The notes below the pieces were generated by a model that was not told the origin of the DNA, ran no database searches, and saw only the letters and a program-made list of their open reading frames with translations. Of a stretch of 64,000 nucleotides of DNA, positions 1,085 through 38,421 are shown one piece after another. The translations under genes and the position numbers were made by a program. This DNA is from a phage, in the NCBI GenBank assembly GCA_012628545.1, contig GCA_012628545.1_3035.1; one strand, written 5' to 3'. Positions within the stretch are counted from its first letter, which is position 1; each line of letters begins with the position of its first letter.

Positions 1085-1578
1085 AAAGTTTTAATAACCT
1101 CTATAATATCGTCTTGAGAAAGACCGTTAATTAAAATATGATGTTCAGCCGGAGATTTAGAAATTTTAAAGCATGCCTCAACATCTTCTGCCATATCCGA
1201 TGCGCTACGATTTGGATTACTAATTCCAAGACGATGTTTTCCCGTCAAAGGATTGACGATGATATAGCATTTGCAGCTATTGATATGAACATTAGGTTGA
1301 GTCTGATTAATGAACACTTCGCAATCATACTTAGCGAGTTGATTTTCTAAAAAGACTTTCATCTCCTCAACCGCATCAGGAAGCATATCACGGGCTTGCT
1401 CAAGACGACGATTTCGATATTCTTTAATGGTCGTTTTCCGCTTGACTTGCTTAGCTAAATCTTTCTTAAGATCGGTGATATATCCAACTCGACGATTTCC
1501 TTTGAATACAGAAATCCCATCTGTAGTATCACCGTATGCTTCAACGACCATTTCAGTAGTAATAAGCTGCAAATCCAT
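1075..1578 (-). CDS. alc: Alc, inhibitor of host transcription on cytosine-containing DNA
   Basis: Translation MDLQLITTEMVVEAYGDTTDGISVFKGNRRVGYITDLKK... recognised as T4 Alc (about 167 aa); position upstream of rnlA; start taken at second Met. Confidence 0.8.
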   Translation of the reverse strand: MDLQLITTEMVVEAYGDTTDGISVFKGNRRVGYITDLKKDLAKQVKRKTTIKEYRNRRLEQARDMLPDAVEEMKVFLENQLAKYDCEVFINQTQPNVHINSCKCYIIVNPLTGKHRLGISNPNRSASDMAEDVEACFKISKSPAEHHILINGLSQDDIIEVIKTLCN

Positions 1579-1642
1579 CATAAAGTCCTCATGTTATGTC
1601 AGTAAGACTACTGTAACACAACACGAGGGACTTGTAAACAGC

Positions 1643-3230
<1,588 letters not shown>

Positions 3231-3237
3231 AATAAAA

Positions 3238-3253
3238 TGGGCCTTGCGGCCCA
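3238..3253 (-). terminator. hairpin terminator downstream of nrdB
   Basis: TGGGCC-TTGC-GGCCCA stem-loop followed on the minus strand by TTTTATT. Confidence 0.5.
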
Positions 3254-3257
3254 CTCC

Positions 3258-4436
3258 TTAAAAATATTTTTTAAAACTCATCATAACTTTATCATCAACA
3301 TCATTATCAATCTGTGCAACAAGGTAAGATGACAGTTCTACTTCTTGCGGCGCGGATTGAACATTATCAGAATTAAGGTATTCACGAATCCAAGGATATG
3401 GATGTTTAACCGGAGCATCGGTAATTGGGCATGGAAGACCGCACTGTTTCATACGAGATACAGTTAAGTAATCAATAAAGCTCCACATGCTATTTGTATT
3501 TAATCCAGGAACATCGCCATCTTTAAATAAATGAACTGCCCAATCTTTTTCTTGGCGGTTAACTTCCATGAAAATATCAACTGCTTCTTGTTCACACTCT
3601 TTGGCAATTTTAACCCATTCATCACCATCAGTGCCAAGTTGAAGTTGACGAATAATATATTGTGTACCTTTAAGATGAAGCTGCTCATCACGTGCAATGA
3701 ACTTCATAATCTTGGCATTACCTTCCATGATTTCCATATTCTTGTGGAAGTTAAAGGTACATGCAAAAGATACATAAAAACGAATAGCTTCCAATGCGTT
3801 GATTACGTGCAGGCAGAGGTAAAGAGAGCGCATTAGTTCACGTTTCCAATACATTTCATGCTCTATGGCATCTTCAATAACGTCTTCGTCTGCATTAATT
3901 TCTTTTTGGTATTCGATATCAGCTTTAGCGTTTTCCCAATAACGAGTTTTAATCAGAACATCATCATAATAACGACCAATAGATTCAGCGCGTTTCATAA
4001 TAGCTTCATCTAATACAATCTCATCAAATACCTTTGACGGATCAGTATAAAGATTTCGCATGATATGAGTATATGAACGACTGTGAATAGTTTCACTAAA
4101 AGTCCACGTAGCAACCCATGTATCAAGGCTTGGGTCTGAAATCAATGACATAAGTACAGCAGACGGCGCACGACCCTGAATGCTATCCAAAAGTGATTGA
4201 TACTTCAGATTATTAGTAAAAATATCTTGCTGATATTGAGGAAGCTTGTTAAATTGCGCAGCATCCATCATTAAGTTTACTTCTTCAGGGCGCCAGAAAA
4301 ATGACAACTGCTTTTCGGTTAAATCTTCAAAAACTTTATGACGTTGAATATCATAACGCGCAATACCAAGACCTGAACCAAAAAACATAGGTTCTTTTAA
4401 AACATCAACTGGATTTGTATTAAAAACTGTGCTCAT
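3258..4436 (-). CDS. nrdB: ribonucleotide reductase small (beta) subunit
   Basis: 392-aa uninterrupted ORF recognised as aerobic RNR R2 by overall similarity to T4 NrdB; contiguous (no intron). Confidence 0.9.
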   Translation of the reverse strand: MSTVFNTNPVDVLKEPMFFGSGLGIARYDIQRHKVFEDLTEKQLSFFWRPEEVNLMMDAAQFNKLPQYQQDIFTNNLKYQSLLDSIQGRAPSAVLMSLISDPSLDTWVATWTFSETIHSRSYTHIMRNLYTDPSKVFDEIVLDEAIMKRAESIGRYYDDVLIKTRYWENAKADIEYQKEINADEDVIEDAIEHEMYWKRELMRSLYLCLHVINALEAIRFYVSFACTFNFHKNMEIMEGNAKIMKFIARDEQLHLKGTQYIIRQLQLGTDGDEWVKIAKECEQEAVDIFMEVNRQEKDWAVHLFKDGDVPGLNTNSMWSFIDYLTVSRMKQCGLPCPITDAPVKHPYPWIREYLNSDNVQSAPQEVELSSYLVAQIDNDVDDKVMMSFKKYF

Positions 4437-4487
4437 AAATTTTCCACTTAGTTAATAGATAGTGACTCGTCCATGAGTCAAATTATA

Positions 4488-6752
4488 TCATAATTTACAG
4501 GATGAACAATCTTCAGCTTTTGGAGTTTCTATTTCATAATCATCAGTACCAGAACCATCACGGGTATTATGATAATAGAAATTTTTTCCGCCAAAATACC
4601 AAAAATACAAAAGGTCATCAATCATTATTGACATTGGAACCTTTCCTTTTGGAAAAATCTGTGGGTCATAATATGTATTCGCCGAAGCTGATTGACAAAC
4701 CCATTTCAGCATAATAGCTACCTGCGTAAGATAAGGTTTATTACCTTTCTTAGCTAATTTCCATGTATAATCATAGAGGTCTATGTTATGCTCAATATTG
4801 GGCACGACTTGATTAAAGGAGCCCTCTTTTGATTCTTTAACAGAGACTGGTCCACGTGGAGGCTCGATACCGTTTGTACTGTTAGAAACTTGGGAAGATG
4901 ACTCACATGGCATAAGTGCTGATAATGTGCTATTACGGATGCCAAAGAGCTTAAGGTCTTCCCGCAGCGACGACCAGTCACAAACGTATTTTGGAGCTGC
5001 GATTTGGTCAATCTTTTTATTGTACCAGTCGATAGGTAATTCGCCTCGAGACCAACGAGTGTCTGAATAATATTCGCAAGGTCCTTTTTCTTTGGCGAGC
5101 TTAATGGATGCTTTAATGAGTCCATACTGTAATCTCTCAAATAGTTCATGTGTTAAATCGTTAGCATCTTCATAAGAAGCAAAGTTACTTGCCAGCCAAG
5201 CTGCATAGTTAGTAACACCTACACCGAGGTTACGACGCTTTTTAGCTTTTTCTGCTTCAGGAACTGGATATCCTTGGTAATCCAAAAGATTATCAAGAGC
5301 ACGAACTTGAACTTCTGCTAATTCATTAATTTTATCTTGGTCTTGCCAATCGAAGTTATCCAGCACAAATGCAGATAACGTGCACAATCCAATTTCAGCA
5401 TCGGGGCTATTCACATCATTTGTTGGAATAGCAATTTCACAGCACAAGTTACTCTGACGAATAGGTGCCTTTTCACGAATAAATGGAGTATAGTTATTCG
5501 TATTATCAATGAACTGTACATAAATCCTTGCTGTTCCTGAGCGTTCAGTCATGAGCAATTCAAATAGTTCACGGGCTTTAATACGCTTTTTACGAATATT
5601 AGGGTCTTTTTCTGCTGCTTCGTATAATTCACGGAAACGGTCTTGGTCTTTAAAATAAGAATAATAAAGCTCGCCACCCATTTCATGCGGACTGAACAAA
5701 GTAATGTAATCGTTCTTTCCGAATCGTTCCATCATCAAATCATTCAGCTGAACACCATAATCCATATGACGAATGCGGTTTTCTTCTACGCCTTTGTTAT
5801 TTTTCAAAACGAGAAGATTTTCAACTTCCAAATGCCAAATAGGATAATAAGCAGTAGCAGCACCGCCACGAATTCCACCCTGTGAGCATGATTTAACTGC
5901 AGTCTGAAAATGTTTCCAAAAAGGAATAACACCGGTATGGCGTACTTCACCCATGCCAATCTTAGAACCTTCGGCACGAATCATACCAACGTTAATACCA
6001 ATTCCAGCGCGTTTAGAGATATATTCAACAATTGAAGCGGAAGCCTTATTGATAGACTTCAGCGAATCACCTGCCTCAATAACAACACATGAACTAAACT
6101 GTCGAGTCGGAGTACGACAACCAGCCATAATAGGAGTTGGCAGTGAAATCTGTCGAGTAGATACTGCTTCATAAAAACGGATAACATGTTTTAATCTATC
6201 AACAGGTTCATCTTGATGCAATGCCATTCCAATAGTCATAAATGCAAACTGTGGAGTTTCATAAATTTGACCAGTGGTTTTATCTTTAACTAGATATTTT
6301 TCTTTTAATTGCATCGCCCCGGAATAAGTAAATTCCATATCCCGCTCGTGCTTAATTTTTGATTCTAAAAATGTAATTTCTTCTGCTGAATATTTTGACA
6401 ATAATTCAGGGTCATATTTACCTGCATTTACACAATAAGAAATATGGTCAATAAATGAACGCGGTTCATACTGCCCATAAACATGCTTACGAAGAGCAAA
6501 CATTAAACAACGTGCAGCTACATATTGGTAATCAGGCTCTTCAACCGAAATAGAATTCGCAGCGGCCTTAATGACAATAGTCTGAATATCATCAGTGGTC
6601 ATTCCATCACGGAGATATGATTTAATATTTTCATATAATTCATAAGGATCTACAGATGTTCCTTCAGCTGCCCAAGATAAAACTTTAATAATTTTTTGCG
6701 GGTCAAAGCTCTGAGAAACACCACTACTTTTGATAACATTAATTAATTGCAT
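4488..6752 (-). CDS. nrdA: ribonucleotide reductase large (alpha) subunit
   Basis: 754 aa, N-terminal ATP-cone region, conserved catalytic cysteines (NLCCEI context); same length as T4 NrdA. Confidence 0.95.
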   Translation of the reverse strand: MQLINVIKSSGVSQSFDPQKIIKVLSWAAEGTSVDPYELYENIKSYLRDGMTTDDIQTIVIKAAANSISVEEPDYQYVAARCLMFALRKHVYGQYEPRSFIDHISYCVNAGKYDPELLSKYSAEEITFLESKIKHERDMEFTYSGAMQLKEKYLVKDKTTGQIYETPQFAFMTIGMALHQDEPVDRLKHVIRFYEAVSTRQISLPTPIMAGCRTPTRQFSSCVVIEAGDSLKSINKASASIVEYISKRAGIGINVGMIRAEGSKIGMGEVRHTGVIPFWKHFQTAVKSCSQGGIRGGAATAYYPIWHLEVENLLVLKNNKGVEENRIRHMDYGVQLNDLMMERFGKNDYITLFSPHEMGGELYYSYFKDQDRFRELYEAAEKDPNIRKKRIKARELFELLMTERSGTARIYVQFIDNTNNYTPFIREKAPIRQSNLCCEIAIPTNDVNSPDAEIGLCTLSAFVLDNFDWQDQDKINELAEVQVRALDNLLDYQGYPVPEAEKAKKRRNLGVGVTNYAAWLASNFASYEDANDLTHELFERLQYGLIKASIKLAKEKGPCEYYSDTRWSRGELPIDWYNKKIDQIAAPKYVCDWSSLREDLKLFGIRNSTLSALMPCESSSQVSNSTNGIEPPRGPVSVKESKEGSFNQVVPNIEHNIDLYDYTWKLAKKGNKPYLTQVAIMLKWVCQSASANTYYDPQIFPKGKVPMSIMIDDLLYFWYFGGKNFYYHNTRDGSGTDDYEIETPKAEDCSSCKL

Positions 6753-35032: not shown

Positions 35033-35305
35033 TTAATTCATATTACGTTTAATAACTTCAGCAACTTCTAGTAGTTCATCTTTAGTTGCGGTGTCGGATT
35101 GAATTTTATCTCTAATATCTTTAAAGCGGTTTTTAAATTCTTCGGCTTCTCCCATATCGAAAAAGCGTTGAATGATTCTATATTCTCGATGAACTGCTTT
35201 ATCAAAAAGTTCTAAATTTACTCTATATGATTTCATTTCAATATCCTCATTTGCCCAATTAATTATACCACATCCTTGTGTAAAGTAAACTACTGGCTCA
35301 TCCAT
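35033..35305 (-). CDS. hypothetical protein, 90 aa (rIIA.1 position)
   Basis: ORF between 39 and rIIA; early promoter (35262..35290) upstream. Confidence 0.45.
35262..35290 (-). promoter_or_regulatory. early promoter inside 3' end of gene 39
   Basis: GTTTAC-N17-TATAAT on minus strand, upstream of rIIA.1/rIIA. Confidence 0.5.
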
Positions 35306-37107
35306 TCTTTACGAAGGTCAGCATTATCTCCCATGAGCATTTCAAAAAGCTCTTTCCAATTCTCAGGAAGTTTAACAACATCATATACTGGATTTTGAAT
35401 CATCTCACGATATTCAGATTTTTCCAAAGAGCCAAGTCCCTTAATATAACGGATGCTATGTTTAGGTAGAGCATCTTTGGCACTCTCATATTCAGCGACT
35501 GTATAAAACCATTCTTGTTTTTTACCGACCTGAGCGATGATTACAGGAGTTTTGACAAAGCGAATTCGTCCTTGCTCAAACAATTCTGGCCAATTACTAA
35601 AAAATCCGAGCAGAGAAGGATAAATGCTTCCTAGACCATCATGGTCAGCATCAGTCATAATAGCAATATTGCGATAATTCAAGTTTTCAGCTTTTTCACC
35701 AAGAACTAGACCAGTGATTGCGCAAATATCAAATAGTTCTTTGTTTTTAAGCATATCGGCATATGACATACCCCAGCTATTAAGAACTTTACCGCGCAAT
35801 GGATAACCACCATGAAGTTCTTTATCGCGAACATCAATAAGATATCCGATAGCTGAATCACCCTCAGTCAAGAACAATGTAGTGTCAGCATCTTTACCGC
35901 AAAGATTCGCTTTAATATGTTTATGAACCTTAGCTTTAGAAGCCTTTTTAGCTGCTTTAGTTTCTGCTGCTTTTTCTGCCGCCAATTTACGAGCCAAAGC
36001 AGCTTCAATAATCGGCATCAGAATTGCTTCATTATTTAGAATAGCGCGTGAAATCTTTTTAGCGTCAAGTTGAATATGACTACGAATTTCGCCAAATGGA
36101 GAAGTCAAACGCTCTTTAGTTTGAGAATCAAATCGCATGTTTTTCATATCACGAACAAACATAACGATAGTCAAACATTCTTTGACACGTGCTTTAGTTA
36201 CATCAATTTTGAACTTACGTTTGATTTGTGGAATAAGGTCTTCACAAATATCATCCATAACACAGTCAATGTGATGGCCACCATTCTTAGTGTGAATGTT
36301 ATTCACGTAAGTTAATTGACGAAATCCATCCGGCGAACGACCAACCGCAATAGAACAATTTTCTTGTTCTTGAACAATAGCATGTTCATCATACTGTCGT
36401 GCATATTTCTTAAAATTACCCTGAACCTTTTTACCATTAAAGGTAAATTGAATATCAGGATAAACAACAGCAAGTGTCTGGAGACGATCTAGTGTAATGT
36501 CAAGATAAACTTGGGACAGCTCATTAGTTTCAAATGACATAAAATCAGGAATGAAAGTAACACGGGTTCCTTTCCATTTTCCAGGAATATCTTCCCATGA
36601 TTTATTTTCCATGCCGTTTGAACAACGAACTACAATATTATTTTGACCATCGCCAGTTTCACCAACAAACATCACAGAAAAAATGTTTGTCAAACTAGAA
36701 CCAACGCCATTCATACCACCGGTGACACGTTCTTTATCATCACCGAAGTTACCACCTGCTTTTGGAATAGTCCACGCAGCAACAGGACCAGGAATTTCTT
36801 CACCGGTAGGTGTTTTAACCATCGCCTGTGGAATACCACGACCGTTATCTTCAACTGTTACTTGATTATTTTTAATAGTAACATTAATTTTATTTGCGAA
36901 TTTAAACTTAGTACGAATACCTTCATCTACTGAGTTATCGATAATTTCATCAATAAGCTTAACAAGACCAGGTACATACTGAACACTTTCCCATTTACCA
37001 AACAGAAATCGCTCATGCATTTCATTAGCTGAAGAGCCAATGTACATGCCGCTACGCTTTTTGATATGTTCAATATCGCTCAGAATTTTAATTTCATTCT
37101 TAATCAT
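35290..37107 (-). CDS. 39: DNA topoisomerase II large subunit (GyrB-like ATPase + TOPRIM), uninterrupted
   Basis: 605/606 aa; GHKL ATPase motifs (DNGRGIP, GGMNGVGSS) and TOPRIM region (IAIMTDADHDGLGSIYP) in one frame; no coding gap at the DHDG/LGS junction. Confidence 0.9.
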   Translation of the reverse strand: MIKNEIKILSDIEHIKKRSGMYIGSSANEMHERFLFGKWESVQYVPGLVKLIDEIIDNSVDEGIRTKFKFANKINVTIKNNQVTVEDNGRGIPQAMVKTPTGEEIPGPVAAWTIPKAGGNFGDDKERVTGGMNGVGSSLTNIFSVMFVGETGDGQNNIVVRCSNGMENKSWEDIPGKWKGTRVTFIPDFMSFETNELSQVYLDITLDRLQTLAVVYPDIQFTFNGKKVQGNFKKYARQYDEHAIVQEQENCSIAVGRSPDGFRQLTYVNNIHTKNGGHHIDCVMDDICEDLIPQIKRKFKIDVTKARVKECLTIVMFVRDMKNMRFDSQTKERLTSPFGEIRSHIQLDAKKISRAILNNEAILMPIIEAALARKLAAEKAAETKAAKKASKAKVHKHIKANLCGKDADTTLFLTEGDSAIGYLIDVRDKELHGGYPLRGKVLNSWGMSYADMLKNKELFDICAITGLVLGEKAENLNYRNIAIMTDADHDGLGSIYPSLLGFFSNWPELFEQGRIRFVKTPVIIAQVGKKQEWFYTVAEYESAKDALPKHSIRYIKGLGSLEKSEYREMIQNPVYDVVKLPENWKELFEMLMGDNADLRKEWMSQ

Positions 37108-37176
37108 CACTTATCCTCGTTTGGTTTCGGGAATATTATACTCCGGTAATCATAAAGCTAAAGGCCCGAAGGCCTT

Positions 37177-37446
37177 TTATTTAAAACGAATAGTTGAATC
37201 CTTAAAGAACAGCCCAGAACATACTGTTCCTTCTACTTTCTGCCCGGTAGGTCCAATAGCACGAAATCCAGTATGTTGGAAATCATTTTCAGAACAACCG
37301 AACCAGTTATATCCAGTGATTTCAATATTAGTAAAACCGCTTGAAGATAAAACTTTGGTTGCATTATCAGCATCAGTACATCCTACTAAAGACACTGTTA
37401 ATACTAATGCTGCAATAGAACGATTAATATATTTCATAATTTTCAC
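37177..37446 (-). CDS. predicted lipoprotein, 89 aa
   Basis: Signal peptide with lipobox LVGC (MKYINRSIAALVLTVSLVGCTD). Confidence 0.45.
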   Translation of the reverse strand: MKIMKYINRSIAALVLTVSLVGCTDADNATKVLSSSGFTNIEITGYNWFGCSENDFQHTGFRAIGPTGQKVEGTVCSGLFFKDSTIRFK

Positions 37447-37814
37447 TTAAATTTAATGGCTTGAAGAAGACTAATAATTCTCAAGCGACTTCTTTCATCT
37501 TTAACTGTAAAAGAAAGAGGGTCACCAGATTTCATAGTAATAGTACATTCAAAATCAAAATCTTCGGAAACTTCTTTGAAGAAGTCAAATTCTTCATCAT
37601 AAATTAGAACATTACTCTGACAACTATGAAGAATTTTTCCATCATTTCCAGATGCTGTACTAATCATTGTAACATTATGACCTTTCATACCTTCAATGAT
37701 AAATTCACTAGTCAATATTACAGCATTAATAGAACTATTCCTATTACTAGCAGAAAGTAGATATTTCTGTTCTTCACCTTCACGAATGCAATATTTCTTA
37801 CCGATTTTAAACAT
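37443..37814 (-). CDS. hypothetical protein, 123 aa
   Basis: ORF in 39-downstream cluster. Confidence 0.4.
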   Translation of the reverse strand: MFKIGKKYCIREGEEQKYLLSASNRNSSINAVILTSEFIIEGMKGHNVTMISTASGNDGKILHSCQSNVLIYDEEFDFFKEVSEDFDFECTITMKSGDPLSFTVKDERSRLRIISLLQAIKFK

Positions 37815-37816
37815 AA

Positions 37817-37993
37817 TTATCCTTTAAGTAAGTCGTAAAATCCGCCATTCACATGCTTAGGAGCAGAAGGCCGACGAGTAGACAAACGATGACATTTAGG
37901 GCAAACATCATTTTCTCGTTCAGAAATCTTTTTAATTTTTTCATATTCATGCCCGCAATCTTCGGATTGGCATTTATAATCATACATTGGCAT
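37817..37993 (-). CDS. small zinc-ribbon protein, 58 aa
   Basis: Hand-translated MPMYDYKCQSEDCGHEYEKIKKISERENDVCPKCHRLSTRRPS...; CxxCGH...CPKC pattern. Confidence 0.45.
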   Translation of the reverse strand: MPMYDYKCQSEDCGHEYEKIKKISERENDVCPKCHRLSTRRPSAPKHVNGGFYDLLKG

Positions 37994-37995
37994 AA

Positions 37996-38421
37996 TTATT
38001 CCTTAAAGTGTGCTTTCAGCATTTGATACAAGGACCATGCCTGTTCATTATTTTCAATAGTAACTTTCATGACAGGAAATTCTGTGAAATCTTCTATTTG
38101 TTCTTGCTCTTTCTCTTCCTGCTCTTGCTCTTCAGCTGCCTGATATGGATTTTCCACTTCATCAAAGAACCCAGCTTCGTTAGTAGAAAGCCAAATAAAG
38201 TTTTCGTCAAGGATATCACCATGTGTTGCATATCCAACTGTGCCAGTAGATGTCACAATTTTAGTAGGACGACCAAGATGGTCAACATCTAAAATTTTAA
38301 AAGGATGCATACCTAAACGGCGTGCATAGATTCCGTTATCAGTATGATCTTTAATAAAATTTTCTTGAGCTTGTTTATTTTTAAATTGATACCATTTATT
38401 AACTTCAAATCTAATAGCCAT
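37996..38421 (-). CDS. hypothetical protein, 141 aa (goF-sized, position-based)
   Basis: Acidic Glu/Gln-rich linker ([12 protein letters not shown]); size equals remembered T4 goF but sequence not verified. Confidence 0.4.

Follow-up and report, generated by a model that had tools for sequence, protein, structure and literature searches.

Gene 39.2 of a T2-like Tequatrovirus: a short zinc-ribbon protein that probably modulates GroEL in the manner of T4 NwgI

The DNA analysed here is a stretch of 64,000 nucleotides from a phage (contig GCA_012628545.1_3035.1; hereafter the window). According to the ORF listing, a minus-strand frame of 58 codons runs from ATG to TAA at positions 37817..37993 of the window and specifies the product MPMYDYKCQSEDCGHEYEKIKKISERENDVCPKCHRLSTRRPSAPKHVNGGFYDLLKG, whereas the plus-strand reading of the same interval is broken by stops. 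The original prediction had placed a 58-residue ORF with this product at this position and had left its strand unstated; frame and product are confirmed, and the strand is minus. The ORF is part of a tightly packed, co-oriented string of genes, of which the following members and internal features are needed below.

35290-37110, minus strand: topoisomerase gene 39, unsplit, about 605 aa (ORF map)
37177-37446, minus strand: gene 39.1, 89 aa with a lipobox (ORF map, phrog_902)
37443..37814, minus strand: goF paralogue of 123 aa, directly downstream of 39.2 (phrog_622)
37817..37993, minus strand: coding sequence of gene 39.2, T2-type orthologue of T4 Gp39.2/NwgI, 58 aa plus TAA (ORF, identity, Pfam, dN/dS)
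37820..37824, minus strand: AAGGA Shine-Dalgarno sequence of the downstream gene, embedded in the final 39.2 codons
37820..37867, minus strand: short C-terminal tail of the 39.2 product, residues 43-58, SAPKHVNGGFYDLLKG (alignments)
37892..37972, minus strand: zinc-ribbon core, Cx4C-N17-CxxC (sequence, alignments)
37970-37972, 37955-37957, 37901-37903 and 37892-37894, minus strand: codons of C8, C13, C31 and C34, respectively
37996..38421, minus strand: goF, 141 aa, directly upstream of 39.2 in the packed string (ORF map, PHROG, T2)
38000..38004, minus strand: AAGGA Shine-Dalgarno sequence of 39.2, within the final goF codons
38421-38636, minus strand: cef (ORF map)

The packing around the ORF is close at both ends. 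The goF stop codon (TAA, 37996-37998) lies 2 nt ahead of the 39.2 ATG, and the window, re-sequenced T4 and the T4 reference all read AATAATTATG across the junction between the two genes. A missing translation signal had been named as a point against the gene; the AAGGA found 6 nt before the ATG provides one. At the other end, the 39.2 stop codon (37817-37819) is followed by the ATG of the next gene at 37812-37814, and the Shine-Dalgarno sequence of that gene falls inside the 39.2 frame, a layout that would be compatible with translational coupling. A scan for promoters and terminators returned 23 sites where shuffling led us to expect 24.8; its top promoter candidate, TTTACA-17-TATAAT at 39580-39552 on the minus strand, lies upstream of motB. 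Because the count of promoter-like sites shows no excess, we take the extent of the transcription unit from gene packing and from expression data on T4.

Several smaller features of this neighbourhood deserve mention. Both goF and the 123-aa gene downstream of 39.2 match phrog_622 (E-values of 1.5e-41 and 8.9e-29 among the two). The paralogue is also found in T2, where it is annotated in a shorter version of 105 aa, and is missing from T4, where 39.2 abuts 39.1. The start of 39.1 overlaps the stop of the ORF upstream of it (ATGA), and its product begins with MKIMKYINRSIAALVLTVSLVGC, apparently a signal peptide with the lipobox LVGC, so that it is probably a lipoprotein, judging from its N-terminus. 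Gene 39 is unsplit in the window, in T2 and in RB69, whereas in T4 it exists as two parts, 39 and 60, separated by mobA and 60.1.

Over 1.6 kb around the ORF, the DNA shares 99.3% identity with phage GiZh and 96.9% with T2: the window belongs to a T2-like Tequatrovirus. The encoded protein is 100% identical to T2 gp39.2 (BBC14621.1), and T2 annotates the same ORF as '39.2', in a slot between goF and 39.1/39; the minus strand of the window preserves this gene order, with 39.1 and gene 39 as synteny anchors. The description of the gene as unannotated is accordingly true of the ORF track only, given that it carries the name 39.2 in T2, GiZh, RB18 and hundreds of further records. Identity of the window protein to its homologues falls from 91% in RB69 through 81% in re-sequenced T4 to 44% in RB49 and 35% in RB43, and the RB69, RB49 and RB43 genes are all found just upstream of topoisomerase gene 39. 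Identity, the equal length of 58 aa, the position upstream of 39 and downstream of goF, and the strand all agree, and on these features of sequence and order the window protein is assigned to the T-even 39.2/NwgI orthologous group. In the extracted loci, the homologues occupy positions 1629-1802 (RB49), 3954-4115 (RB43) and 1501-1677 (Certrevirus).

The comparison with T4 relies on the 58-aa ORF of re-sequenced isolates (MT984581, which yields the 81% given above; likewise HM137666), which reads MPLYDYKCQSKDCAKEYEKIKKISERDTDVCPDCHRLAVRLVSAPKHVNGGFYDLLKG. This T4 protein is like the window protein in its length, in its place in the goF-39.2-39 slot and in its Cx4C-N17-CxxC ligands, and the two share an identical C-terminus (SAPKHVNGGFYDLLKG), whereas 11 of the 58 residues of the window protein are substituted, in clusters at residues 11-15, 27-28, 33 and 38-42. 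A further difference is the goF paralogue, which separates 39.2 from 39.1 in the window and T2 but not in T4. A T4 protein that we had rebuilt by deleting one base from the reference was 74% identical to the window protein and has been superseded by the re-sequenced ORF.

The T4 reference (NC_000866/AF158101) itself annotates 39.2 as a protein of 45 aa. Over 341 bp (NC_000866 5559-5899), its identity to each of the re-sequenced T4 isolates is just 95.9%, and within 39.2 one extra T together with several substitutions breaks the frame and leaves 45 aa. The adjacent 39.1 is similarly affected: the reference version has 65 aa and lacks a signal peptide, whereas re-sequenced T4 carries an 86-aa form with MKYINRSIAALVLAVSLIGC. 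These differences probably go back to old sequencing errors, which continue to be copied; the omics table of PMC9697503 is one place to which they have been carried over. In that table the 39.2 transcript is assigned to the early class, in line with the mention of phage early regions in the original prediction, and Gp39.2 is undetected in the time-course proteome (Class_P = NA; PMC9697503 Table S2). The proteome relied on the erroneous 45-aa reference sequence of Gp39.2 (PMC9697503), a truncation that could account for the missing detection. Small proteins commonly escape proteomic detection in any case.

Is the ORF a gene by sequence behaviour as well as by name? An ORF of this size could have arisen by chance in AT-rich DNA, or one of the frames that overlap it, at 37849-37983 (minus, 44 aa) or 37853-38026 (plus, 57 aa), could be the real one. 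In favour of a chance origin, 45 ORFs of 30 aa or longer fall wholly or partly within the 5 kb of AT-rich DNA around it, and the promoter-like sites do not exceed the shuffled expectation; a length of 58 codons is thus within chance here, and the case for a gene has to rest on other evidence. Such evidence comes from the pattern of substitution. Among Tevenvirinae orthologues, dN/dS ranges from 0.02 to 0.13, and dS reaches saturation at its upper end (Nei-Gojobori); a comparison of T4 with one of these orthologues counts 18 synonymous and 2 non-synonymous changes in the 39.2 frame. The changes in the 58-aa frame are overwhelmingly synonymous, and 39.2 is under strong purifying selection. Of 886 phage records matched by tblastn, 852 cover at least 80% of the protein and keep the frame, and curated profile models score above threshold (see below). 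Deletion of the gene from T4, moreover, is described as having a genetic phenotype (PMC5153855). Substitution pattern, profile scores and deletion phenotype together refute both the chance ORF and the overlapping frames. The diversity of homologues was judged from the tblastn search of phage records and from pattern-seeded searches of loci; a word-indexed protein search returned 7 near-identical clusters only.

The profile searches bear out the proposed FmdB-type zinc ribbon. The window protein scores 45.7 bits on Pfam Zn_ribbon_8 (PF09723; cut-off 34.4, E=6.7e-12, residues 1-41) and 44.9 bits on the NCBIfam model TIGR02605, 'FmdB family zinc ribbon protein' (cut-off 31.3), where the alignment spans model positions 1-39 of 52 only; its PHROG match is phrog_1076. 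It thereby shares an above-cut-off score with the bacterial FmdB/TIGR02605 'CxxC_CxxC_SSSS' proteins but lacks their Ser-rich, low-complexity 'SSSS' C-terminal region. A sequence search of the PDB gave nothing significant, the top match being ribosomal protein bL31 at E=0.78. The ligand spacing had been given as CxxC...CxxC. This is accurate for the second knuckle (CxxC; C31, C34) and for the canonical spacer of 17 residues, whereas the first knuckle (C8, C13) is C-x4-C, a variant found throughout the Tevenvirinae and in jumbo phages.

How well are these ligands kept? When T-even, RB49, RB43, Certrevirus, jumbo-phage and cellular sequences are aligned, C8 and C34 show no variation, and conservation of C13 and C31 is 90% or higher. 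The departures follow a pattern: RB49 replaces the first cysteine pair by C-x2-H, and RB43 and Certrevirus have CxC as the second pair. Such homologues still keep four ligands at altered spacing, so the exceptions do not amount to the loss of the four cysteines that had been put forward as an argument against the zinc ribbon. We would expect the four cysteines of the window protein to hold a single zinc ion within a zinc-ribbon fold, an expectation that draws on the zinc binding measured in the homologue Ruc (PMC7448276).

Conservation extends beyond the ribbon into the short tail. The tail contains a family-conserved [K/N]G[S/G]GFY motif that aligns with FKGSGFYxTDY of cellular members, and S43-K57 are invariant across close homologues, which makes the tail as constrained as the ribbon. 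The protein terminates about 5 residues past GFY, whereas cellular members run on for a further 20-60 hydrophilic residues. An AlphaFold2 model built from an alignment of 5 sequences reached a mean pLDDT of 48.4 and a pTM of 0.26, a confidence too low for a binding surface to be derived from the model.

How might so small a protein serve the phage? Two reports describe the T4 orthologue, Gp39.2 or NwgI, as a modulator of host GroEL, for which genetic and biochemical data suggest that it moves GroEL toward an open conformation that binds co-chaperone/GroES (PMC5153855; PMC4396842, summarising Ang and Georgopoulos, 2012, Genetics 190:989). According to the former, T4 deleted for 39.2 fails to grow on particular groEL mutants of the host (PMC5153855), and suppression of groEL/groES alleles is likewise described for the T4 gene. 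The gene in the window is hence one that is already known and named, and the GroEL role of its T4 version was published in 2012. The original prediction had offered two roles for the protein, regulator or binder of a host factor; the second is the right one, in that the T4 orthologue acts on GroEL, and for regulation we encountered nothing besides an inherited product name.

In the 2012 study, the gene was reportedly first selected from RB69, and the homologues of T4, RB43 and RB49 are said to have acted alike. By the same account, the RB49 and RB43 proteins, with their altered metal ligands, were reportedly active on GroEL, and the T4 39.2 phenotypes are said to be specific to particular groEL and groES alleles. 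Since the RB69, T4, RB43 and RB49 homologues reportedly behave alike, the divergence that has been sampled brackets the window protein, and we infer that the T2-type protein shares the function of T4 NwgI. We consequently regard the minus-strand frame at 37817-37993 as gene 39.2 of a T2-like Tequatrovirus, encoding an early host-takeover protein, a zinc ribbon that modulates GroEL like NwgI, and put the probability of this reading at roughly 80%.

We envision a scenario whereby 39.2 would be transcribed early, within the packed motB-cef-goF-39.2-...-39 string, and translated from its own AAGGA site, and whereby its product would act on the host GroEL chaperonin and not on DNA. The open/closed equilibrium of GroEL would then probably be pushed to the open form, to which either GroES or gp31, the co-chaperonin of the phage, can bind. 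In T4, GroEL-dependent folding concerns the major capsid protein and involves gp31. A shifted equilibrium would probably allow capsid-protein folding, and hence phage growth, to work still on hosts with a sub-optimal GroEL. Contact between Gp39.2 and GroEL is presumably direct, and we suspect that the surface involved is the GGFY-DLL tail.

An entirely different activity is implied by the current product name. RefSeq calls the protein an 'FmdB-like transcriptional regulator' and phrog_1076 is placed in the category 'transcription regulation', which, together with the transcription- or RNA-directed action of the neighbouring motB, goF and cef, could suggest a small regulator of the early-to-middle switch that binds DNA or RNA polymerase. 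The label is, however, inherited from a putative assignment for which our literature search found no supporting experiment; FmdB itself is not known to be more than a proposed regulator, a role suggested by its position in a formamidase locus. Matches of the window protein to DNA-binding families are weak and below cut-off, such as Ogr_Delta at 13.8 bits against a threshold of 26.3, and both studied members of the family, NwgI and Ruc, are linked to chaperones. We therefore consider such a regulator very improbable. The label is misleading, and annotators should cease to propagate it.

The second studied member, Ruc, is the Mycobacterium tuberculosis protein Rv0991c, which consists of a zinc ribbon (C8, C11, C29, C32) and a disordered tail (Becker et al. 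2020, PMC7448276). It holds one zinc and turns into an anti-aggregation chaperone upon oxidation, zinc loss or Cys-to-Ser changes, a holdase activity that requires the disordered C-terminal tail, Ruc 1-49 being inactive; it also co-purifies with DnaK and promotes refolding by DnaKJE (PMC7448276). For comparison, we used the mutagenesis primers of that paper to reconstruct residues 1-18, 23-40 and 42-49 of Ruc (PMC7448276). The resulting 1-49 fragment scores 49.4 bits on PF09723, and pairwise BLASTP aligns it with the window protein at E=9e-5 and about 24% identity. Common to both proteins are thus the Pfam family, a start of the form MPxYxYxC, four cysteines, the 17-residue spacer and a GFY-type motif, and both Ruc and Gp39.2 are functionally tied to major chaperone machines. 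They differ in that the first knuckle is CxxC in Ruc and Cx4C in the phage protein, in that Ruc extends into a long, disordered and hydrophilic tail whereas the phage protein is essentially tail-less, and in that Ruc is linked to DnaK/DnaJ/GrpE but Gp39.2 to GroEL/GroES. Only about 8 residues follow the N-terminal region of about 50 aa in the phage protein, and these are conserved and partly hydrophobic (GFYDLL). With tail lengths in the Ruc family ranging from 7 to 61 residues, this figure of about 8 stands at the lower edge (PMC7448276).

Given these similarities, might the phage protein be a stress-activated holdase of the Ruc type? It would be inactive while zinc-bound, would upon oxidation or zinc loss bind unfolded phage or host proteins and pass them to ATP-dependent chaperones, and would thus produce the GroEL phenotypes indirectly. 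The common profile match, the four-cysteine layout with its GFY motif, and the zinc-bound, oxidation-activated and DnaK-linked nature of Ruc (PMC7448276) all argue for such a mechanism. Against it stands the tail that Ruc needs for activity: the phage protein ends shortly after GFY, and it is for want of a long hydrophilic tail that we rank the holdase as a rival and not as the main explanation. The allele specificity that the T4 phenotypes are said to show likewise points to the chaperonin and away from a general holdase. Modulation of GroEL in the manner of NwgI remains the preferred reading, and we consider a Ruc-like holdase improbable, if less so than the transcriptional regulator.

Gene order offers a further view of the relation to chaperones. 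The ruc genes adjoin chaperone genes across many phyla (PMC7448276). T-even 39.2 has no chaperone gene beside it, its neighbours being goF, cef, motB, 39.1 and 39, and adjacency to GroES or GroEL was found at none of the T-even loci. Among 80 loci of cellular relatives that we examined, about 29, all from Planctomycetota, carry the order groES-groEL-dnaJ-grpE followed by the zinc-ribbon gene. These strings are co-directional, the zinc-ribbon ATG lies 1-70 nt past the grpE stop (for example in strings at locus positions 1108-5303 and 1212-5318), and Pfam confirms DnaJ, GrpE and Zn_ribbon_8. We do not present the Planctomycetota string as a new observation, because such an arrangement has already been published for ruc (PMC7448276). 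A linkage to chaperones throughout the family was also considered and rejected, given that Melioribacter/Ignavibacteria, Saganbacteria and Bacteroidota-like loci place the gene among unrelated neighbours. In a Lentisphaerales metagenome-assembled genome (locus 1418-5237), genes resembling those for trigger factor, ClpP and ClpX, as judged by their N-terminal sequences only, are located upstream of the zinc-ribbon gene in divergent orientation.

A second link to chaperonins is found in phages. In enterobacterial jumbo phages of the 121Q/PBECO4/Munch/fHe-Yen9-04 type, a Cpn10/GroES gene is immediately preceded by a 39.2-like zinc-ribbon gene with the Cx4C knuckle. At least 47 phage records contain the pair, with DNA identity falling as low as about 65%, and it is seen in Klebsiella phage fENko-Kae01, in Yersinia phage fHe-Yen9-04 and in 4 metagenomic jumbo contigs. 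With the window protein, the jumbo-phage zinc ribbons share the Cx4C knuckle and a KI.KIS.R[DE] stretch; they are 50-53% identical to it over residues 1-35 and score 39.3 bits on Zn_ribbon_8. They differ in having 67-69 aa and another C-terminus (GDKGASFRFKGNWFNTTGRY), and whereas the jumbo-phage gene is physically paired with a phage Cpn10, T-even 39.2 lies far from gene 31.

From an evolutionary perspective, these comparisons invite a broader, tentative proposal, to which we give rather less than even odds. NwgI and Ruc may be the two characterised extremes of a single ancient zinc-ribbon family that serves Hsp60 and Hsp70, in which the phage form would be tail-less, specialised for GroEL and possibly switchable by zinc or redox state. 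The GFY motif would then be the chaperone contact, and the zinc-ribbon-GroES pair of jumbo phages would be a second, independent use by phages. A corollary is that, if this family reading is true, no member of the phage branch is correctly labelled as an 'FmdB-like transcriptional regulator'. The connection between NwgI, Ruc and the jumbo-phage gene appears to be unpublished: the Ruc paper mentions neither phages nor 39.2 (PMC7448276), our literature search found no paper naming both Ruc and Gp39.2, and in the searchable literature the jumbo-phage zinc-ribbon/GroES pair is not discussed together with NwgI or Ruc. Bringing NwgI, Ruc and the GroES-linked jumbo-phage gene into one family opens a testable route to how a chaperonin might be tuned by 58 residues. 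In the extracted jumbo-phage loci, the zinc-ribbon and GroES genes lie at positions 1501-1994, 2001-2517 and approximately 2501-2993.
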